DNA from: an uncultured Verrucomicrobiae bacterium | GTDB taxonomy: Bacteria > Verrucomicrobiota > Verrucomicrobiia > Chthoniobacterales > JAATET01 | Assembly (NCBI GenBank): GCA_963719495.1 | Contig: CAVRCI010000014.1 | Location: forward strand, 166,575 to 230,574 | Length of the DNA stretch: 64,000 bases | Reading direction: 5' to 3' | Part shown: piece by piece, positions 2,038-16,992 of the stretch | Position numbering within the stretch: position 1 is the stretch's first letter | How the letters are laid out: each line of letters opens with the position of its first letter | Notes under the pieces: model-generated | The model's input: only the letters and a program-made list of their open reading frames with translations | What the model was told of the DNA's origin: nothing | Database searches by the model: none | Program-made: the position numbers and the translations under genes

Positions 2038-3420
2038 TTAATTGATGCCGGCGTAGTAGGTGTAGTAGGGGGCGTCGTTGGCTAAGCGGCCAAGGTAGAT
2101 TGCCAGCTCGCGGGCGTGGTAGTCGCCCCACATGCTGGATTCGCCGTTGGGGACTTTGCTGCCTTCGGGAATGTGATCCCAGCCGTTCGGTCGGTGATAG
2201 ATGCTGTGCAGGATGAGACCTTGGTGGCTGTCCTTTTCGCTTAGGTAGGGGGCGGAGAAGAGCGTGTTGGCGGCGGTGAGGCCGGCTTGGGTGTATTTGG
2301 CGGCCTTTTCCGCGTTGCCTTTGCCTTCGTGGTATTTGCCGAGGCGGAGGAGGCCCTGTGCGCCGATGGCGGCGGCGGAGCTGTCGACGGGTTCGTAGTC
2401 GTTGTCCGGCTCGGCGGGGCGGTCGAGGTAGTTGCCGAGCTTGTGGATGAGCGGGGCTCCGGTGTCCCAGTAGGGAATTCCGTCGGTCGGAGTGTTCTCG
2501 ATGTAGAAGTCACACGTGGCTTCGGCGGCTTTTAGCCAAAGCGATTCAATGGCTTCGCGTCCGCCGAATTCGTCGAGCGTGGCGTCGTCGAGGGTGGCGA
2601 GGAATTCGAGTTCTTCGGGGTAGCCGACCATGGCCCACGAGAGGCCGCGGGTCCAGGTGGTGAAGCCGGAGAAGCCTTGCTGGCTGTTTGGGCAGCGGAA
2701 GGCTCCGTCGTTGCGATTGAAAACGGCTTCGTGCGCGGTGCGGCCGCGGACGTCGTAGTGGTCGCGGCCTTCGCCATACCAGACGTTGAACTTCGCCGTT
2801 GCCGCCAGGTGTTGGATCGCGCGGTGCAGGAGGGAGATCGGCTTGTCGCCCTCGCCCATCAGGACGTGTCCGAGCTGGTGGCCCGCCATGAGGACACGGC
2901 AGGACCGGACCGTGTCGACGAAGAGCGAATGGGGTCCGTTGAACGAATAGATGTAACCTCCGTCGGGAATCGCCGACCAGCGGGCGGCCTGCACGGCGGC
3001 GGACGTCTTGATGGCTAATTTGTAAAACTCGGCTTCCCATTCGTTCGTTTCGATGCGGCCTTCGCGCATGAGGCGGAGGAGGTTGCCGTAGGTCGAGAGG
3101 TTGTTGAAACCGTGGTCGTGGACGCCGACGTGGCTGACGTGCGAGGCCATCCGGTCGACGGTGTTGCGGCGGGCAATTTCGAGGAATTGCTCGTCGCTGG
3201 TGGCGTCGAATTGCAGGACGGCCGACCCGTAGACGAAGCCCTCGGTCCATTCGGTCCAGCCGCGGGTCGAGTATTTCCCGGCGACGGTGTAGACGGGGGT
3301 GCCGTTGGATTTGTCGTAGTTGCGCTCGATGTCGAGGATTTTGCGACCGGAATGGTCCCAGAAATTGGCGAGCTTGGGGGCGAGCGACGCGGGGGTGAGG
3401 GTGGAGTTGTGGTGGATCAT
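2038..3420 (-). CDS. Glycoside hydrolase family 88 (unsaturated glucuronyl hydrolase-like)
   Basis: WTEGF, HDHGF, TWTRGLSWA, PYWD, DSSAAAI and WGDY motifs. Confidence 0.85.
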   Translation of the reverse strand: MIHHNSTLTPASLAPKLANFWDHSGRKILDIERNYDKSNGTPVYTVAGKYSTRGWTEWTEGFVYGSAVLQFDATSDEQFLEIARRNTVDRMASHVSHVGVHDHGFNNLSTYGNLLRLMREGRIETNEWEAEFYKLAIKTSAAVQAARWSAIPDGGYIYSFNGPHSLFVDTVRSCRVLMAGHQLGHVLMGEGDKPISLLHRAIQHLAATAKFNVWYGEGRDHYDVRGRTAHEAVFNRNDGAFRCPNSQQGFSGFTTWTRGLSWAMVGYPEELEFLATLDDATLDEFGGREAIESLWLKAAEATCDFYIENTPTDGIPYWDTGAPLIHKLGNYLDRPAEPDNDYEPVDSSAAAIGAQGLLRLGKYHEGKGNAEKAAKYTQAGLTAANTLFSAPYLSEKDSHQGLILHSIYHRPNGWDHIPEGSKVPNGESSMWGDYHARELAIYLGRLANDAPYYTYYAGIN

Positions 3421-3423
3421 TCG

Positions 3424-3541
3424 GGTCGGAAGGTCGGAAGGTCGGAAGGTCGGAAGGTCGGAAGGTCGGAAGGTCGGAAGGTCGGAAGGTCGGAAGGTCG
3501 GAAGGTCAGAAGGTCAGAAGGTCAGAAGGTCAGAAGGTCAG
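3424..3541. repeat. 8-bp tandem repeat (GGTCGGAA)10(GGTCAGAA)4 plus partial unit
   Basis: Read directly; ends 3 bp from the GH88 start codon. Confidence 0.95.
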
Positions 3542-3611
3542 GGCACCGGCGGCTGCATCGGCTTCCGGCAGTTGCCGGACCCGGAGGGCGGAGCGAGCGA
3601 GTCAACATGCC

Positions 3612-4253: not shown

Positions 4254-7462
<3,209 letters not shown>

Positions 7463-7466
<4 letters not shown>

Positions 7467-8113
7467 TGGGCCGACTGGGTTACGGTTATGTAGGCCTGCC
7501 GCTCGTGGGTCGGTGTTTTAGGGAAAGCGAGATTGAGCTTCCGTTCCCGAACCAGGCTGGTGAGGTATTGGTTGCGCAGGGTTTCGGGCTTCCGGTTTAC
7601 GAGTTCCGCAAGGCACCGCAAGGTGACAAATCGGCCCTCGCAGAGACTGAGAACGACTGAAATCAGAACTTCTCGGTCCACTTTGCCCTTGTCTCGCGGC
7701 TCTCGTGCGAGGGTTTCCAAAGTCGACCGAAACACCGGCGAAAGCAGGCTGAGATCGTCCACCATAGGCAGCCCCAGTTGCTCCGAGATCAGGCAGCCTT
7801 TTGAATCCCGGTTTTCGTTCAAATTCGAGGAGCTCCGGCTCAAATTCGAGGAGCTGCCCCCTGAATTCGGGGAGCTCGGAAGCGCAAATTGAGTGGGCGG
7901 ACCAAACACATCGTCTGGAGTCGGAATAGCCTCGCCTGGCAGGTGGTAAACAGCTCCGCGCCCACCTGTAGAATCCAGCATCCCTGCGTGGGTCAAGTGC
8001 TGGAGTGTTTTGGACAAATCGACCGGATGCTCGGTCGCATAGCCCAACTCCCCGAACCATTCGAGCGCGGTGTTTTCGACGATGGATTCGTTGAAGGTCA
8101 TAGTTCTAGCCAA
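7463..8113 (-). CDS. Chimeric ORF: HsdR N-terminal copy fused to wHTH C-terminal remnant (possible pseudogene)
   Basis: [21 protein letters not shown] matches the HsdR start; the rest has wHTH-like segments, a 7-aa S/N repeat and an [12 protein letters not shown] tail typical of AlbA/RecG-C/Fic-type C-termini. Confidence 0.6.
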
Positions 8114-8247
8114 TGTCGCGGCTTAACCGTTCTATGGCGTGAAATCTCCGAACCGCGACATCATGTCGCGATTCATGTCGCGATCCCGCTTTCGGCTGCC
8201 ATTCAGGCTGCCTATCGCGACATGCTGTCGTGATTCGTGTCGCGATC
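8113..8247. repeat. Palindromic direct repeats with 62-bp period
   Basis: 32-bp units at 8154-8185 and 8216-8247 (28/32 identical); truncated third copy ATGTCGCG at 8113-8120. Confidence 0.75.
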
Positions 8248-9721
8248 ATGGTTTGAGATATTCGGTTGCAGGGCCGCTGCCGACTCGGCGAACCAGTCCT
8301 AGTTCTACGAAATGTGTCAGATGGCGTTGGGCCGTCCGGGCAGTAACTCCAAGTTCCCTCGCGTATTCGCCCTGAGTGGTCCCGGTCCGCCCCGCCAAGA
8401 AAGTCCAACCCTTCTGTTTTGCACCAGACAATTGATCGAGAACGGAACGGTCCAAAGATTTTGTCGCACTGTCGGCACTCCGGTAAATCGTCAGCACGAG
8501 GGAATCGGCTTCCATCGAATAGTTTGGGAGTGGAAGTCCGAGTTCCTCTGCGTGTCGTTTCAGGCTGGTCAGACCAAATCCCTGTTCCTCAGCCATGCCC
8601 ATGCGGCCAAAAACATAATGCAGTAGGGGATTGCGGCTCTTGATTGGAGCTTCGAACGTCTTCATCTGCTCCAGAGTGATTGGCGGAATCGGCCCACCGG
8701 GACTCTTAATTGTGATCATGTCGTGATTCACGAGCACCTGGCACTTTTGTCCGGCCAGGTCGTAATCTCGGTGAATCAGGGCATTCACCACTGCTTCACG
8801 AATCATCTCGAACGGTAGATCTACTTGCTCGCGTCGTTCCATCCGGCTCCGGTCGAGCGTGCTTGGCAAAACCTTCTTCAACCACGTCTCAAGCTCATTG
8901 GGTATGAACACCAACGCTTGCCCGAACTCCATGCGAGAGGACTTGCCGCCCCCCAATTCTGCCCGGGCCAACAATCTCGCCTGAGGCATGGCAATGCTGG
9001 GGTCGTTGCCGAAGAGGGCCAACCCGAAACCCGAAGGAACAATCTCGTCTCCCACATCCACCAGGATTCCCTGCTGGAGCAAAAAGCGCTGGAAATCCGC
9101 CGACCCCGCTGCCACCGCGAACTTCGCCTTCGATTGGTAGCGTTTGAGCGCCTCTTCGGACAGGTCTCCAAATGTAACGGCTGGGATTGGATCTTCATAC
9201 TTCGACAGCTTGATGGGCTGTTCTTCCGGTTTTACCAATTGCTGTCTGGCCCATTCAAAGAAGTGCTTGTTCTCCTCAAGGATGATCTCCTGCAAATCTA
9301 GGTCGAACATGTGAACGGTCACTCCGTGACGACGCAAATGCTCAATGCCTTTTCCCTTTACCGCTGGGTTGTCATCCTCAATCCCCACCCAGACTTCTTT
9401 GATCCGGGCGCTGACGATTTGCCGGGCACACCCACGCTTCGGATGATTGCGGTTCAAGCAAGGTTCCAGGGTGCCGAAGAGAACGCTCCCATCCAGCTTC
9501 TCGCCGACACACTTCCGCTCCAGCAGGGTGAACTCGGCATGGTTGCCTTCGCGTAACTCGCCGCGGGCGGCTGTCTTGATGGAACCATCTGGCGTGACAA
9601 GCACGGCACCGACCAGCGGGTTTGGTTTTCCGTCGGTGCGCTTCTCAGCTACAGACGAACGCATCACCGCGATGGCCTTTTCCATCAGCTTGCGCGGGTC
9701 GAATTTCGTCTTCGTTGCCAT
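8246..9721 (-). CDS. Zn-dependent cytidine/RibD-like deaminase fused to HATPase_c_4 (RecG-C-like) and wHTH domains
   Basis: PNPLVGAVLV, HAE, TLEPC-x9-C; IREAVVNALIHRDY, SPGG, SRNP; C-terminal ELGVTARTAQRHL...GSGPATEY wHTH. Confidence 0.8.
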   Translation of the reverse strand: MATKTKFDPRKLMEKAIAVMRSSVAEKRTDGKPNPLVGAVLVTPDGSIKTAARGELREGNHAEFTLLERKCVGEKLDGSVLFGTLEPCLNRNHPKRGCARQIVSARIKEVWVGIEDDNPAVKGKGIEHLRRHGVTVHMFDLDLQEIILEENKHFFEWARQQLVKPEEQPIKLSKYEDPIPAVTFGDLSEEALKRYQSKAKFAVAAGSADFQRFLLQQGILVDVGDEIVPSGFGLALFGNDPSIAMPQARLLARAELGGGKSSRMEFGQALVFIPNELETWLKKVLPSTLDRSRMERREQVDLPFEMIREAVVNALIHRDYDLAGQKCQVLVNHDMITIKSPGGPIPPITLEQMKTFEAPIKSRNPLLHYVFGRMGMAEEQGFGLTSLKRHAEELGLPLPNYSMEADSLVLTIYRSADSATKSLDRSVLDQLSGAKQKGWTFLAGRTGTTQGEYARELGVTARTAQRHLTHFVELGLVRRVGSGPATEYLKP

Positions 9722-9813: not shown

Positions 9814-9872
9814 TCCGCCACGCTCAGCCACTTCGGCAGCAGCGTGTCGCGCAGGATGGCGTGGGTGCGGGA
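9814..9872 (-). pseudogene. Duplicated hsdS 3'-end fragment
   Basis: Translates [21 protein letters not shown] versus HsdS C-terminus [25 protein letters not shown]. Confidence 0.8.
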
Positions 9873-9891: not shown

Positions 9892-10086
9892 TCATGTGGC
9901 CTCGCGCAAGCGCCCCACCAGCACCACCTCGCCAAACGAATTGACTTCGTCTGTCTCCGCTGCGCTCCGGCTCCGCTCCGCCACCGGTTCACCGGGCGCG
10001 AGATGCGGCCCGTGCCCGACCGCATAGCCCAGCTCCCCGAACCATTCGAGGGCGGCGTCTTCGACGATGGATTCGTTGAGGCTCAT
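9892..10086 (-). pseudogene. Duplicated hsdR 5'-end fragment (64 aa)
   Basis: [34 protein letters not shown]...[10 protein letters not shown] is nearly identical to the HsdR N-terminus, then stops. Confidence 0.9.
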
Positions 10087-10095
10087 GGGTGGTAT

Positions 10096-11127
10096 CTATG
10101 CGATGTGCAACCACGCCGTCTGGTGCTTTTCGAGCGTCTGCTGGCGCTTCAACTGATATGAAGGAAGCGCGTTGATAAGTGAACCGAAGAGCGCGGGCCA
10201 GTTACCTGAAAGGATGGATGTCAGAACTGAGGTTCCCTTCGTCAAGGCCATGTCCCCTCCTTCAAGCTTCAGTATCTCCTGAAGATGGCGGAAATCATCA
10301 CGAATCTCTGCCGCGAATTCCTGTTCGATTTGCTCCACATCCGCAGGTGATTTTGCGTCCTTCTTGATTCGCTCAACATACCGGTCAACCGCTGATCGGT
10401 AGTTCCTGCGCAAGGGCGGAAGAAGTCCGTCTTCCTGTTCCCGCCGCCGCAACGCCACCAACTTACCAAGCGGAAATTTTCCCGCATCAACCGACTTCAA
10501 CGAAATCGACGCCAAACTGGTGTAGGCGCGTTGAACGTCGGGTTGGTAATCCTGAACCGCTCCGGTCTGCGTTGCCACAAGGCGACTGAACGCCTCGTGG
10601 GCGTCTTTATAGTTCGTCACCTTTCTGTGTGTTCCGCCGGCACAGATGTCCGCGATCATCCCCATCACAATAAGACCGAAGTCTCGTTGCAGGCCATAGT
10701 ATCCGTCGCTTCCATCGCTAACGACGCCTGCGCCATGAAGTAGATCCCAAATCTTCTGACTTAGCTTTTCAGGATACATGTTGTAGTTGTCCACCTGCAC
10801 CTTGAAACGAAGCGACTCCGGGACACCTCCAGCTATCAACTTCTCCAACTGCGCAAAGAGTTCGCCCTTCTCTGGGGCGGTCAACGATCTTGGCTTAACG
10901 ACCATTTCAAATGCTTCCCGAATGGCCCTTTCGTCTTCCCTTTGATTTTGACCAATCATCGGTGACGGCTGGAACTGCGGATCGGGAACGATAACCTCCA
11001 ATGAGTCCCACAACAGAACTGCGGTGGTAAGAAGTTTCAAGTCTGTTCGGTCGTAGTCTTGGCTTTGCCCAGCAAGGCGCGGAGCAACGATTGTGACGTT
11101 CGGATAATAGAGGGCTGCGGTGCTCAT
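10096..11127 (-). CDS. Hypothetical protein, possibly DUF6236-like; candidate defence cargo
   Basis: 343 aa with ALYYP...AVLLWDSLEVIVP start; overlaps the Abi gene stop (ATGA); lower GC than flanks by eye. Confidence 0.6.
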   Translation of the reverse strand: MSTAALYYPNVTIVAPRLAGQSQDYDRTDLKLLTTAVLLWDSLEVIVPDPQFQPSPMIGQNQREDERAIREAFEMVVKPRSLTAPEKGELFAQLEKLIAGGVPESLRFKVQVDNYNMYPEKLSQKIWDLLHGAGVVSDGSDGYYGLQRDFGLIVMGMIADICAGGTHRKVTNYKDAHEAFSRLVATQTGAVQDYQPDVQRAYTSLASISLKSVDAGKFPLGKLVALRRREQEDGLLPPLRRNYRSAVDRYVERIKKDAKSPADVEQIEQEFAAEIRDDFRHLQEILKLEGGDMALTKGTSVLTSILSGNWPALFGSLINALPSYQLKRQQTLEKHQTAWLHIA

Positions 11128-11924
11128 GTTTTGGTTTCCTTGTGGGTTTCAAAAAGAAAAACTGTCAGGGTCGCTGCGGCACCAACTGCCAGCTTCGCGT
11201 GCCGGGTGCTCAAGCCCGATGCGCTTCCGTGTTTGCCGTGGCCGGTGCCATAAAGCCCACGAAGTTCAGCGAGGCCGTTGCCGATAGTTCCTAGGTTGCT
11301 CAAGAGGCGCTTGATGACATCAGCACCGCGAGCGGCATCGGGAACCCCTTCCGGAACAAGCTTCAGTTCCTTGAGTGTCTCCTTCGTCAGCGTCGAAACG
11401 TCAGGAGTGCCTGACACGGGCTTGCCGCGCTCTGCAAGGATGGTTTTGCAGCAGGTCTCGATGAGTTCTTTCGCGGTTCCGATGGCAAGACTTGGGTCGG
11501 TCTCGACGGATGCCTCCATCCGCCGAATCTGTTCCGCGAGGTGGTTTACGTTGAGAACCTTTGCGTGTTCCTTGAGTGGGCCGAGGCTCGGGCCTCCAGC
11601 GAGAAGGCGCGTCGCAATCTGGCGGCACTTATCGGCGAGAGCTTTTGCTTCTGCATCTCGATCTGCGTTGAGTGACGCATCGTAGTCAATCAACGCGAGG
11701 ATGAGTTTGCCGACGGTATAGTCGGCTTCGAGTTTCCAGAGGGTGCGGAGTTTCTTTGCCTTCGACGTGCCTTCCGCCGTGAATTTCTCGTCGTGGATGT
11801 TGATGCCGACAGTTTCGAACACGAACTCTCCAAACGTGCGGTCGGAGAAGTTCAGAACGTAGCCGGACGACATCCCGAAAAACTTTTCGAGGTTGTGGCG
11901 CTCTGCCATCGAGAACGTGCTCAT
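11124..11924 (-). CDS. Abortive infection family protein (AbiJ-like N-terminus plus Abi_C)
   Basis: Start MSTFSMAER overlaps the hsdS stop; GMSSGYVLNFSDRTF; AIGTAKELIETCCKTIL and LAELRGLYGTGHG (HEPN-like Abi_C). Confidence 0.8.
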   Translation of the reverse strand: MSTFSMAERHNLEKFFGMSSGYVLNFSDRTFGEFVFETVGINIHDEKFTAEGTSKAKKLRTLWKLEADYTVGKLILALIDYDASLNADRDAEAKALADKCRQIATRLLAGGPSLGPLKEHAKVLNVNHLAEQIRRMEASVETDPSLAIGTAKELIETCCKTILAERGKPVSGTPDVSTLTKETLKELKLVPEGVPDAARGADVIKRLLSNLGTIGNGLAELRGLYGTGHGKHGSASGLSTRHAKLAVGAAATLTVFLFETHKETKT

Positions 11925-13387
11925 GCCGGAACCTCCTTTTCGACCTCTGCCACGCTCAACTCCCCGCTCAGCAGCTTCGGCAGCAGCGTGTCGCGCAGGG
12001 TGGCGAGGGTGCGGGATTGGTGGAGGTTTGCGGTGATTTGCGCGTAGAGCGGAGCGACTTTGGCGGTGAAGGCGGCCATGAGTTCCTTCGACGGCAGCAC
12101 GACGCGGATGGGGCGGAAGTTCTGTTTGCTGATTTCGGCGAAGGTCGTGCCAGTGGCGCGGCTTTCGATCTCGGCCATGTTCGTCTGGCACCAGTTCAGC
12201 ATGAAGAAGTTTGAGGCGCGTTCGTTGCACTTCAGCGCGATGAAGCCCTGATTGATGGCGACGGGCATGGCGGCGATGGCAAGGTAGCCGACGGGGGCGC
12301 GGGAGGAAAGCAGCAGCGTCCCAGCGGGAAGCAGGCCGGATGAAATCTTGGCGATGCCGGCGTCAGTGAGCTTGCGGTCGGTGTCGAGGAGGACGGGCGC
12401 TTGAAGCGACGAGAAGTCCTTCGGTGTCGTCCAGTGATGCGTGCCGCCTTCCCAATACTTCGGCTCGGCTGTGCTTGGGGTTCCGCCGCCGACGCATTCG
12501 ACGACTTCGCCGACGGGCTGGGTGGTCCAGCCTTTCGGGATGTGACCGGCCTCGGAGTCATGGAAGGAGTCGGAGAAGAGGGCGGCGGTGGCGGGGTCGA
12601 GGGCGGCGGGGGTGCGGTTGTCGAGTTTGGCGCGGACGGGGTCGAAATCCAAGCCGGAGGCACCCTCACCCTCCGCTGCGCTCCTCCCTCTCCCACTGGG
12701 AGAGGGCTGGGGTGAGGGTTGATTTCGATCCATGTTCTGCCGAACTGGATCGAAATCAATAAACCAGCTCTGGAAGAGCGCCCGCGCCATCGCCTCCAGC
12801 GTCGCGTTCATCCGCCGGTTCAACTCGATCTTGTCGTCCAGCGCCCCAAGCACCGCCGCGATGGCTTTTTGCTCGGTGAGGGGTGGGAGCGCGAACGGCA
12901 CCGCGCTCATAATCGACGTGTTCAGATTCGGCATCGTTGCGCCAACCGCGTGACGAACAATCCATTCCCTGATGGCGGGGTGACCGAGAAATAGTGAAGC
13001 AAACAGCGGGTCAACTACACCGCTCCCAAGTCGAACCTTTAAACAGCCAGTGCCGCAGAACCAACCTTCTTCGCGTCCCCTGATGAGCGCCCGTTTCTCA
13101 ACATCTCCACGTCGGCTGTAAATGATGTCGCCCGCCCTCAATCGGTGCTGGCCCAATCGATTGGCGTCCTCCTCGGTGATGCGGACGATTCCATCCTCGA
13201 CGATTCGGTTCTCGCCGATGTTCGTCGGCATGATGGATGGAACGCCGACCGGCACATAATCCGAAGCGTGAAGCTGGCTGCCGAACGGGCCAGTTTGAAT
13301 ATTGCCACCACCGCGTTGGCAAATTTCACCAAGCGTTGTGAACTCCCAATGGTCGGGAATTTCGCCGTTGATGAGGTCAACCGCCAT
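11921..13387 (-). CDS. hsdS: Type I R-M specificity subunit S
   Basis: Two TRDs; [23 protein letters not shown] and [14 protein letters not shown] conserved helices. Confidence 0.95.
12662..12719. repeat. REP-like hairpin inserted in frame in hsdS
   Basis: Differs from the hsdR copy at 7098-7155 at only 3 positions; flanked by a duplicated DFDPVR peptide. Confidence 0.85.
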
Positions 13388-14224
13388 AACCCAGCCCCCT
13401 CAGGTTTGCTTTGATGGCCTGCTCCAGTTTTGCGGACTCGGCGAACTGGGCGTGCAGTTCGGCGACGAGGCGCGGCATCTTTTCCTCGAAGGGGTCGCCG
13501 TCGTCTTCGATTTCCTCGGCGCCGACGTAGCGGCCGGGCGTTAAAGCCCAGCCGTGACTTGCGATTTCGGCGGTGGTGGCGGATTTGCAAAAGCCGGGGA
13601 TGTCCTGATAGATCCACGCCGGATCGGGATCGACTAATGCACTAATTCCATTGCCTCGGTCCACTTCCCCCATCTCAATATCCGCCCGCCAACTGTGGTA
13701 GGTGCGAACGATTTTCTCGATATCGAGGTCGGTCAGTTCGCGATGGACGCGGTCAATCAGAGTTCCCATTTTCCGCGCATCAATGAAGAGCGTCTCTCGC
13801 TGGCGGGCGCGTAGTTTATCCGGCCCTTCCTCTCCGCGCTGCTTCGGCAAGGTGCGTGCGGCTTTGCTCTTGGTGAGGAACCACAGGCAGACCGGGATCT
13901 GCGTGCTGTAGAAGAGCTGGCCGGGGAGGGCGACCATGCAGTCCACGAGGTCGGCGTCGATGATGGCTTTGCGAATTTCCCCTTCGCCGGACTGGTTGGA
14001 GGACATGCTGCCATTGGCGAGGACGAAGCCGGCCATGCCCTGCGGCGCGAGGTGGTGGATGAAGTGCTGCACCCAGGCGAAGTTCGCGTTGCCCTTGGGC
14101 GGAACGCCGAACTGCCAGCGCACGTCGTCGTCCTTGCGGTGCCAGTCGGAGTCGTTGAAGGGCGGGTTGGCGAGGACATAGTCGGCGCGAAGATCCGGAT
14201 GGGTGCAGGACAAAATTCTTCAAA

Positions 14225-15585
14225 TCATGCGGCGAGGGGGAGCGTGTCGTTCTCAGCGGCGCGTGAGTTGAGGCGGTATTTCCAGAACGAGTTCGTTCTG
14301 CGGCTGGCATGGATGCACCGGAAGGCGAGGACTTTGTCCGCGCCAGGCTCGCCCCAGAACATGCCCGATTGCTTGCATCGCTTTCCGATGAGTGAGCGGC
14401 AGCCGGCTTCGACGACTCCGGAGCCGATGAAGTATTTTCTGGCCCGGAAGGTTCCGTATTGCATGCGCGGGATGTTGTTCACGAAGTAGCCCAAAGTGGT
14501 TTCCACCTGTGCCACATTGCCGCGAAGGAGGGCTTCCTGGCGCGCCTGCTTGATGATGCGCTCGACCCCGTCGTGAGCGAGGAGTTTTTTCCAGTGATGT
14601 CTGCGGCGCTTGTTGCGGGCCTGCTCCGCTTTGCCCCAGAGGGTTTCGATCAGGGTCTGGAGGTGTTCCATGGCGTGGTAGAAGTCCACGATTTGGACGG
14701 CATCCGGAAAGTAATCGTGCCCGAGTTTTTCCAAGCCGGGGGCTCCGTCGATGAGCAGGACGGTTTCCGGGGCCGAGAACAAGCCGCGCCGAATGGCCTC
14801 GCGACGCAGGCTGATTCCAAAGTCCGAGGGGCTCTGGAAGGCGGAGAGGTAGGTGGTGGAGTCGTGGTCGCGCAGGGGGCGACCTTGGTCATCTTCTTTG
14901 GTCTGGGTGAAGACGCAACCGAGCGTGGCCATGCGGGTTTTGGCTTTTGCGTCGGGGGCTTTGCCTTTGCGGCCAGCGAGCTCTTCCCGGCGCATGGGCA
15001 CTCCGGTGGCGTCCGCGCTGACGTAGAGGATCCTGGCCTCGCAGGGGCCGGGGGCCGATTCTCGTTTTTGCCACGCCACGGCGCACTCGCCCGTGCGGCC
15101 AACCACACGCTGGATCTGGCGCTCGGAGACGGAGATGCCGCCAGTTTCCGCGAGGTGGAAGCAAGCCTGCTGGAAGCTGCTTTCATCCGCTCCCTCCAAG
15201 CAGATGAGCCGGGCCAGGGCGGGGGTGTAGGCCCCTTCCAGACCGAGGGCCGAATCGGCCGGGAAGTGGCCGCATTTTTTCCCGGGATGGTAGTAGTATT
15301 GGCGCAGCAGCGCGAAGGAGCCGAACATGCCCTGGACCATGAGAACCTCGCGCCCCTTGGCTTGTTCGCCGGGCTTGGGGAGGTAGGCCGCGTCAATGCG
15401 CTCGGCGGCTTGCTGCAGGAGCATGGCCACCAGTTCGTTGGCTGGTTTGAAGATGGCTGTGCGCACGAGGACTTCCAACTCGGCGACGGCAGTTCCGGCT
15501 GGCTCTTTGCTGCGGAACGCGGCGATCAGGTCTTGGATTTCCGCTTCCTGGGCGAGGCAGATGTTTGGGTCGGGCGTTTTTTTTT
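14225..15585 (-). CDS. ISKra4-like transposase, catalytic ORF (probably joined to upstream ORF by -1 frameshift)
   Basis: ADATG, IDGA, DFYHA, IGSGVVEA motifs; frame stays open up to the A9 run at 15577-15585. Confidence 0.85.
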
Positions 15586-15867
15586 AGCCCCGGCCTTGCG
15601 ATCCTGCCTGCTCTGCGCGGTGATCAAGTCCGCATACTCGCCGACAAGAGACTGGAAGCGATGATGGGCATCAATGTTCTCCTGGGCTTGGGCCACCTGA
15701 TCGGCCGGGACGTATTCGGTCACGTTTCGCCCACCCTCCCTACGCTGGAGATTGAAGTAAGATCCGCTCTGGCCTTGACGGATCACCGAGAGCTTTCCTC
15801 GCTCCATGCGGTCGATGGCCGCGATTTGATCAAGGATGGCACGAGGTGCGGTATTTGGGTTCATCAA
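15526..15867 (-). CDS. IS ORF A (transposase N-terminal part)
   Basis: 113 aa inside the TIRs; GCT AAA AAA AAA C slippery site overlaps ORF B. Confidence 0.75.
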   Translation of the reverse strand: MMNPNTAPRAILDQIAAIDRMERGKLSVIRQGQSGSYFNLQRREGGRNVTEYVPADQVAQAQENIDAHHRFQSLVGEYADLITAQSRQDRKAGAKKKRPTQTSASPRKRKSKT

Positions 15868-16323
15868 TCAAACGTATATGTAAACGCATATACTTTGGCA
15901 GTAAAAATACCTCGCTGAAATGCTTTTTCAGAGATTTTTGTCCTGCACCCGATCCGGATGGAGGTCGCGGCGGAAGGTGTCGGCGTGCTCCGGGCCGAAG
16001 TCGGCCTCGATGCCGCGCAGGGCGAGATTCATCACGGCGAGGCGGCGGGTGGTGGCGTTGCTCTCCTGGCCGTAGATGCTGATGTCGCCGAGCTTGCCGC
16101 CGTGGGATTCGACGAATTTTTCCGACTGGACGAACATTCCGCCGGAGCCGCAGGCGGGGTCGTAGATGCGGCCCTGGTAGGGGGCAAGCATCTCGACGAG
16201 GCAGCGCACGACGCAGGACGGGGTGTAGAACTGGCCGCCGTTCTTTCCTTCAGCACTCGCAAAGCGGGTGAGGAAATACTCATAGACGCGGCCGAGCAGA
16301 TCTACCGATCTGTGGGTCGGTCT

Positions 16324-16414
16324 ACCCTCACCCCCGGCCCCTCTCCCAGAGGTAGAGGGGAGACCGGTTTCTTCGCTCCCTTCTCCCGCTGGGAGAAGGG
16401 TTGGGGATGAGGGT
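16324..16414. repeat. REP-like double hairpin inserted in frame in hsdM
   Basis: ACCCTCACCCCCGGCCCCTCTCCC...CCCTTCTCCC-GCT-GGGAGAAGGG...GATGAGGGT; encodes [12 protein letters not shown]...SGRGAGGEG. Confidence 0.8.
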
Positions 16415-16992
16415 TGATTTGACGCGATGAGTTCAATCGTCGCGATCAAATCAATAAGTTCGCCGAGGCGCTGTTTGTCGAGGCCGGGGCGGGCGTAGTC
16501 CTTGGGGAGGACGCCTTTGAGGCGCGGGTTGTCGCGCTCGATGGCGACCATGGCGTCGTCCACGGTCTTGCCGATGGTGGGAAGTTTGGCCGACCCCTGA
16601 AGGTGGGACCAGCGGGCATCGGCGGGCACCCAGAAGACGTTCTCGGCTTTGTATTCGTCGGGATCTTCCGGGTTCGCTCCTTGGTAGTCCCCTTCGCCGG
16701 CGAGGAGCTTGGCGCGGTGCTCCTCGAAGGTGTCGGAGATGTATTTGAGGAAGATGAGGCCGAGGACGACGTGCTTGTATTCCGCCGCGTCCATGTTGTT
16801 GCGCAGCTTATCGGCAGTGAGCCAGAGCTTCTGTTCGAAGCCGAGGTTGGCGGTGGAGTCTTTGGGGGAGCGGGTCTTCCGGGTTGCTGGCATCGCAAAT
16901 CGGGAATGGTATCGAGGCGTCCGAGGCGGGAGAAGTCATTTGGTGGCAATTCATACCGACGTCCCGAAGGAATCAGACTCTGGGCGAATTGA

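Follow-up and report, generated by a model that had tools for sequence, protein, structure and literature searches.

The window (the whole 64,000-nucleotide stretch of DNA analysed here) encodes a 491-residue protein in which a Zn deaminase of RibD-like type is joined, in a genuine fusion, to a GHKL ATPase and to a domain with the winged helix-turn-helix fold (wHTH); it is the Schlafen-GHKL-wHTH scaffold with the effector replaced by a deaminase. Behind the stop codon is an array of 9-bp boxes, and across the family the letters of the boxes change with residues of the wHTH recognition helix. This covariation points to a protein that docks at its own locus, which may serve it as an off switch; the gene is probably a bacterial defence gene. 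The gene and its array are laid out as follows.

8246..9721, minus strand: deaminase-GHKL-wHTH gene, 491 amino acids, an open reading frame without internal stop
9236..9706, minus strand: RibD-like Zn deaminase domain, residues 6–162, with H61, E63, C88 and C98
8480..9220, minus strand: Schlafen-type linker subdomain and GHKL (PF13749) ATPase, residues 168–414
8255..8449, minus strand: winged helix-turn-helix, the swappable module, residues 425–489
8303..8341, minus strand: recognition helix, residues 461–473, of which 461, 462, 465 and 466 co-vary with the boxes
8214..8246, minus strand: triad 1, direct boxes at 8238–8246 and 8226–8234, inverted box at 8214–8222
8152..8184, minus strand: triad 2, direct boxes at 8176–8184 and 8164–8172, inverted box at 8152–8160, 62 bp after triad 1
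8114..8122, minus strand: a lone degenerate seventh box

The protein carries the motifs H61-A62-E63, P87-C88-x9-C98, REAVVNALIHRDY (308–320), SPGG (340) and SRNP (362). In Pfam, dCMP_cyt_deam_1 matches residues 14–113 (E 4.8e-11) and HATPase_c_4 residues 324–412 (E 1.6e-16), both above cut-off; a RibD_C reductase domain and a nucleotide-kinase family are absent, and the SLFN/AlbA_2 nuclease domain (PF04326) has no match at E ≤ 0.1, the N-terminus being the deaminase. The AlphaFold model of the whole protein has a pLDDT of 83.8. Residues 6–162 of the model are best matched by the deaminase domains of RibD/RibG (Z 18–20), above TadA, the cytosine deaminases and the dCMP deaminases (Z about 15), and residues 168–448 match DIP2311 (PDB 3lmm) with Z 21.9. 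The last 72 residues form a winged helix (pLDDT 87.3) whose best Foldseek rows are of the MarR, IclR and ArsR types (E about 1e-3, none below 0.001); the support for this domain is at the level of the fold, the Pfam HTH families at residues 441–482 being below cut-off.

The first-pass annotation had described an intact HAE and PC-x9-C deaminase signature with no reductase, joined to REAVVNALIHRDY, SPGG, SRNP and a wHTH, and had proposed an effector swap on a Schlafen scaffold. The motifs and folds bear out both points, and the HMM and structure search that it suggested recovered the deaminase, HATPase_c_4 and the winged helix. A name already given to the architecture would, it held, speak against its proposal; PADLOC has no model for the whole protein, its dCTPase model giving a weak 38-residue match (E 2.5e-4), and PHROGs and the Atlas have domain-level or automatic names only. 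Four family members (P0127, P0155, P0168 and P0254) have an extra N-terminal domain of 130–185 residues without a Pfam match, in two cases with Cys pairs.

In the family search, the 120 best matches cover 89–100% of the query at 67–92% identity. The alignment used for conservation holds the query and 70 full-length relatives from among the 150 best representatives (71 rows, identity 27–64%). E63 is kept in 71 of 71 rows and H61, C88 and C98 in 70 each, and the GHKL centre, E309 and N313, is invariant in the 71 full-length rows. By motif, these two residues correspond to E314/N318 of RzAgo, which bind ATP-Mg in a protein whose GHKL domain drives tetramer formation, according to the accessible part of its description (10.64898/2026.05.29.728809). 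Also kept are D116 (70 of 71 rows), a D or N at position 118 (58 of 71), and R53, R91 and K95 (70, 67 and about 64 of 71). D116/N118 align with a residue pair of B. subtilis RibG, Asp101/Asn103, that binds the hydroxyls of the ribose; the substrate of RibD is a ring-opened GTP derivative (both from the available text of PMC8256712). Retention of D116, position 118, R53, R91 and K95 points, if weakly as regards the ribose, to a substrate that would bear ribose and phosphate. Since RibD works on a ring-opened GTP derivative, our first guess is G to X, with a guanine-like ribonucleotide as the possible substrate in place of dCTP; we lean towards it without granting it half the weight. A tRNA is possible but rather unlikely, and we place a dNTP or DNA at the same level.

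The array consists of two triads of 33 bp, each made, in order, of two direct boxes of 9 bp and an inverted one, with 3 nt between neighbours. From the start of one triad to the start of the next is 62 bp, and the array spans 8152–8246, within a repeat region at 8149–8254. Triad 1 begins on the last base of the stop codon. The 4.54-Mb host genome contains two triads in total, both behind the deaminase-GHKL-wHTH gene. The array test covered the 78 family loci with a complete 3′ end, leaving out L021, which has a broken wHTH, at a threshold of 42/54. A double triad scoring at least 42/54 is found in 58 of the 78 loci; of 642 control windows taken at these loci, 4 reach that score (0.6%). Nine further loci carry one triad. 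Inspection by eye of the 11 loci without an automatic call gave seven that fit the rule, two that contradict it, one with another kind of repeat and one that is ambiguous. Triad spacing is 62 in 51 of the 58 loci and 61 or 63 in the other seven. The triads are inverted in L046 and L083, which is easier to square with a site in DNA than with an RNA element. Scans for promoters and terminators did not rise above chance.

The strict degenerate triad pattern, which misses the window's own array, matched 2 of 401 genomes, in one case behind a family gene and in the other (L130) without such a gene within 1.5 kb. A search of plasmids with the array DNA gave three short matches at E 0.9, that is, chance. 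Orphan triad clusters of several specificities, with no cognate gene directly upstream, occur at L031:8254-8470, L049:4860-4960, L019:400-500 and L130, and the 62-bp unit is expanded to three or more triads in L140, L141, L142 and L043.

The relation between helix and box was tabulated for 65 dereplicated loci, the 65th of which, L026, was misassigned through a one-base gap in its first triad. Across the other 64, residue 466 goes with box letters 7–8: R with AC (39/39), N with CC (23/23) and L with CA (2/2). The exceptions, found by eye, are L046 and L083, which have R466 with CC boxes. Residue 465 goes with letter 5, R or K with G in 14 of 14 loci, Q with C in 27 of 32 and L with C in 12 of 13, and residue 462 tracks letters 2–3. 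Within the R..QR class, E461 is accompanied by C4 in 6/6 loci, and where E461 is lacking letter 4 is a base other than C in 20/20. The rules for 465 and 466 combine freely (RR, RN, RL, QR, QN, LN, KN, MN and TL). In the modelled helix 461–473, the co-varying residues occupy positions 1, 2, 5 and 6, which in HTH proteins usually read the bases.

On a tree of the catalytic part (54 rows), residue 466 and the box have each undergone 14 changes, with agreement in 8 of 8 independent pairs (p 0.008). On a tree of the wHTH with the reading residues removed (64 rows), there are six changes of each and one well-supported independent pair, so that physical linkage of helix and boxes alone could still explain the covariation. 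Among 11 held-out loci, arrays are clear in 10 and decayed in one. Letter 5 obeys the simple rule in every clear locus but L145, a member of the K462 class seen before; letter 7 fits nine clear loci and misses L151; letter 8 fails twice, with CA beside N466 (L143 and L146). The code is real at its core but context-dependent. That the boxes follow the wHTH, and not the downstream gene, bears on the proposal that the protein is a transcription factor acting on the gene downstream, in most cases hsdR, and that its deaminase serves to sense a ligand. At many loci the array is indeed upstream of hsdR or of a fragment of it; however, many others have different downstream genes, the catalytic residues are fully kept, and a promoter-like site is not above chance, so we regard that proposal as very improbable.

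Pairs of loci separate the wHTH from the rest of the protein. The cores of L002 and L007 are 92–93% identical and their wHTHs 38%; for the window and L022 the values are 82–90% and 47%, and for the window and L024 they are 40–66% and 70%. By these sequence comparisons, wHTH identity is uncoupled from core identity, and catalytic cores that are almost identical have had helix and boxes replaced as a pair. We infer that helix and array are exchanged as one cassette, which would yield many non-cross-reacting specificities. At 14 of 48 loci there are trailing triads with a different specificity (7 of 17 scoring 25–27), and 9 of 20 trailing-triad gaps measure 58–64 bp, as if the second triad of a new cassette had replaced the first triad of the old one. 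The trailing triads may be replacement scars or spare immunity sites.

Trailing non-cognate triads are also what a selfish addiction or exclusion module might leave, one in which the array is the antitoxin, loss of the locus kills, specificities diversify by competition between cassettes, and defence is incidental. Arrays that outlive truncated genes (L018 and L085) agree with such a module, as does the patchy presence of the family, which is absent from the five congeners searched and occurs in 9/401 and 6/401 genomes of two other phyla. Against it, no full-length family copy was found among the 117 plasmid records, 27 phage records and 17 viral contigs matched, and gaps of 58–64 bp in 9 of 20 cases are the expectation for scars of serial replacement. 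We consider this module unlikely.

Repeats extend beyond the deaminase versions. Among 15 non-deaminase relatives, most of them Schlafen proteins, six score 22–24/24 in the search for a repeat of 11 or 12 bp at the wHTH, as do 5 of 400 control windows; L093, L101, L110 and L118 have background scores for the wHTH-adjacent repeat. Three of five annotated non-deaminase records have repeats and two do not (L134 and L135). L108, a Schlafen version, combines L465 with R466, which no member of the deaminase set does, and its box is the one that the deaminase rules predict. The repeats at Schlafen versions and the L108 box indicate that the array belongs to the scaffold and not to the deaminase, and since some Schlafen-GHKL-wHTH genes have no evident array, the scaffold can exist without one. 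In the Schlafen versions L124, L125, L016, L136 and L137, the repeats are inside the gene, before the wHTH. Two Schlafen genes with a common repeat have it in the same reading frame, and the in-gene 12-bp repeats could be slippage products in a linker.

The presence of repeats beside Schlafen RNases also bears on the idea of a tethered mutator that diversifies neighbouring DNA. The Inv-AAD (AID/APOBEC-like) Pfam model does pass its cut-off on the protein, and there is a DNA-binding domain in cis. Nevertheless, departures from the box consensus are balanced over 53 loci (C>T 65 vs A>G 57), so local hypermutation was rejected for want of a signature there, and the ribose-binding Asp is kept; we give the mutator hardly any credence.

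The gene is placed between hsdS and hsdR, in agreement with its first-pass assignment to a type I restriction-modification (R-M) locus. The surrounding features are these.

4254..7466, minus strand: hsdR, type I restriction subunit
8028..8101, minus strand: second truncated copy of the hsdR 5′ end, right cassette scar
9818..9872, minus strand: copy of the hsdS 3′ end, left cassette scar, 91% to 11962–12016
9897..10089, minus strand: truncated copy of the hsdR 5′ end
10096..12230, minus strand: further cargo between hsdS and hsdR, namely an AbiJ-like gene (Abi_C) and an ORF of 343 aa
11921..13387, minus strand: hsdS, type I specificity subunit
13377..16893, minus strand: hsdM in two pieces (15928–16893 and 13377–14213), split by an IS at 14201–15950

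The IS, which has terminal inverted repeats of 19 bp and is flanked by a target duplication of 9 bp, disrupts hsdM; therefore the R-M system is probably dead, while the deaminase gene and its array are intact. Both this split and the array lay outside the first-pass observations. The copy of the hsdS 3′ end and the truncated hsdR 5′ copies read as the traces of a cassette that would have been imported when one hsd locus recombined with another.

Several other elements of the locus were recorded. Inside the IS are a 417-aa transposase-like ORF (weak UPF0236) and a 113-aa ORF (DUF6788 at cut-off). The 343-aa cargo ORF (10096–11127, minus strand) has no match in Pfam, NCBIfam, PADLOC or PHROGs. 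The ORF at 7463–8113 (minus strand) starts as an hsdR 5′ copy, continues into an unassigned C-terminal piece with 21-bp repeats at about 7830–7890, and has no match in Pfam, PADLOC or PHROGs; it looks like the remnant of another repeat-bearing cargo gene. A palindromic element is inserted in frame in hsdR (7098–7156), hsdS (12662–12720) and hsdM (16324–16420), a 34-bp repeat at about 9941–9974, within the hsdR 5′ copy, has many copies in the host genome and congeners, and a tandem 20-bp repeat tract lies between two genes at about 3420–3560. The second PF13749-type gene of the genome, L133 (G000:C13:557687-559579), lies beside a methylase and a helicase and has 21-bp repeats between two C-terminal helical domains.

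Of 94 family loci, the 40 with at least 2 kb upstream and 1 kb downstream were used for neighbourhood counts, with Pfam run on 114 of the 189 ORFs called around them; the genome scan was seeded with words of the query and is thereby biased to close relatives. R-M-type operons account for 26 of the 40 (a raw count, without a background rate): 21 loci match the window's hsd proteins, three of them through hsdR only, and Pfam on the neighbours adds five, of type I, IIG, II, III and DUF1156. Three further loci are beside other defence-type genes (SMODS-SLATT, AAA_15 and Uma2). At 11 of the 40, three of them broken genes and two duplicates, no defence neighbour is found among the 114 scanned ORFs, and no conserved partner family appears among the neighbours scanned. 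A RadC/UPF0758 gene is located 3′ of the array in several unrelated loci (L035, L048, L049, L056, L059 and L085). The counter-case named at first pass, a riboflavin context of the homologues, is not seen, as no riboflavin family occurs among the 114 neighbour ORFs. A riboflavin enzyme was rejected on this ground together with a score of 74.7 bits against the TIGR00326 (RibD) cut-off of 156, the lack of RibD_C, and a separate two-domain RibD encoded in the host genome.

The slot between hsdS/M and hsdR, occupied by the gene in 11 of the 40 flanked loci, is reminiscent of PrrC, which is held inactive by its own R-M system (PMC3710099, from the portion available). A PrrC-like guard would be kept silent by the type I R-M complex until anti-restriction proteins set it free, and the first-pass annotation had likewise offered that the protein guards the R-M complex. 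This is disfavoured: here the gene and array are intact despite the split hsdM, relatives are in type IIG, II, III and DUF1156 systems or alone, and the hsdS-hsdR slot takes any cargo, such as Abi_C in the window. DarTG2 is another cargo of the type I R-M slot in the accessible text of PMC12255303. We rate such a guard as quite improbable, close to the transcription factor.

The best explanation, to which we give nearly but not quite even weight, is that a single gene encodes a conflict effector which is anchored to its own DNA and restrained by it. Sequence and model show that the polypeptide combines the deaminase effector, the GHKL ATPase and the wHTH. With high probability, the wHTH would read the 9-bp boxes that follow the stop codon of its gene, and an oligomer would span the two triads about six helical turns apart; binding of wHTH to array is the only step for which the indirect support is strong. 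The array would then be the off switch, in that binding would limit the output of its own gene and keep the few protomers docked, until a phage destroys the host DNA, the protomers are displaced from the array or the locus is lost; active deaminase would then be set free and stop the cell. This last step we hold tentatively, as a proposition that falls a little short of an even chance. The off switch is favoured because the six-box site is unique, phased, kept with intact genes and diversified as a matched pair, which is antitoxin-like, and because, in PANGU, coming off degraded DNA is able to set off defence. Against the off switch, one array docks only about six protomers. Against a defence role, two Schlafen-HisKinase (pSlfn1) fusions gave no phage protection in E. 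coli, according to the available part of PMC13056530.

Under autoregulation only, the protein bound at the array would block RNA polymerase at the end of its own gene, and the enzyme would be switched on otherwise, for example, by a phage protein or a nucleotide signal acting on the GHKL domain. LacI at O3 blocks RNA polymerase at a gene end, with tmRNA tagging. In 12 of the 58 double-triad loci, including the window, triad 1 starts on the stop codon, and at the in-gene repeats of the five Schlafen versions a roadblock would truncate the message. However, array offsets from the stop run from −35 to +68 over the 58 loci, and most arrays start further out, up to 68 bp past the stop, where the reading frame is complete. 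Moreover, many specificities and their frequent exchange are unexplained by simple feedback. We take autoregulation alone to be the strongest of the competing accounts, though still an unlikely one.

It is tempting to extend the anchored-effector reading to a class of one-gene immune or addiction systems in which a DNA array in cis is the antitoxin. The effector would read a private six-box site through a simple residue-to-base code, be silent when docked, and fire upon destruction of the chromosome or loss of the site; helix and array cassettes would be swapped for new specificities. This generalisation is speculative, and we think it less likely than the reading for the window itself. If true, it would also apply to part of the Schlafen-GHKL-HTH family, which is very large.

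The scaffold is known, and the unreported cis element could be a new kind of control. The array is a testable regulatory element for a scaffold present in about 60,000 Schlafen proteins (the figure is from the accessible text of 10.64898/2026.05.29.728809). In the available portions of the published accounts, the scaffold's HTH has no assigned function. The array is the best clue to regulation. It is predicted that cloning such genes without the 3′ flank changes their behaviour; the published Schlafen-HisKinase test describes its constructs by upstream sequence only, in the part of PMC13056530 at hand. The family would also add a candidate RibD-derived deaminase to the conflict effectors, and it offers a natural set of orthogonal pairs of wHTH and putative operator with a readable code.

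Our literature search found no paper on the deaminase fusion, the array geometry, the code or the swapping, and published supplements could list the architecture. The accessible parts of the papers on RptR (PMC12255303) and PrrC (PMC3710099) and of a modularity screen (10.1101/2025.09.30.679545) do not cover the fusion or the arrays. The closest relative is the Schlafen-GHKL-(w)HTH protein ('Schlatpase', pSlfn1/2; DIP2311, 3lmm), which has the C-terminal two thirds in common with the window protein (Z 21.9) and carries a tRNase where the latter has the Zn deaminase. The GHKL Glu/Asn pair is common to the window protein (E309/N313) and RzAgo (E314/N318), and ATP-driven oligomerisation has been shown for RzAgo only (10.64898/2026.05.29.728809, accessible text). 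The scaffold is described, in the part of PMC12839542 available, as a backup effector beside R-M and BREX, a context like the R-M context of the deaminase family. A cognate DNA array and a helix code are not mentioned in the accessible portions of the published Schlatpase accounts.

RibD/RibG is nearest to the deaminase domain in fold (Z about 20) and in sequence, and shares the HxE, PCxnC and Asp101/Asn103 equivalents; unlike RibD, the window protein lacks the reductase domain, scores below the TIGR00326 cut-off, and does not keep the His after PC. The deaminase classification, in the available text of PMC3239186, places RibD-like enzymes only in riboflavin synthesis. As in the AvcID/dCTP-deaminase defence systems, a Zn deaminase is the presumed toxic output. 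AvcD is held by an RNA antitoxin, as far as the accessible account goes. Unlike AvcD, the window protein has no kinase domain, is RibD-like rather than dCMP-deaminase-like, and has the weak 38-residue dCTPase match.

PrrC likewise lies between hsdS and hsdR and joins an NTPase to an effector, in the accessible text of PMC3710099, but its domains, an ABC-ATPase and HEPN, are absent from the window protein and unrelated to it. Unlike PrrC, the window protein shows no sign of dependence on R-M, given the split hsdM and relatives in other contexts. The DNA boxes of RptR are tied to type I R-M loci, as here; RptR, in the available part of PMC12255303, is a small repressor with upstream promoter repeats and a fixed 6-bp site, whereas the window boxes are 3′ of the gene and variable. 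The logic of PANGU, in which release from degraded host DNA triggers the effector (10.64898/2026.04.06.716658, accessible portion), resembles the release trigger proposed for the window protein. PANGU, however, uses a separate nucleoid-associated sensor, and the system in the window is one polypeptide with a private, sequence-specific site that changes with the helix.
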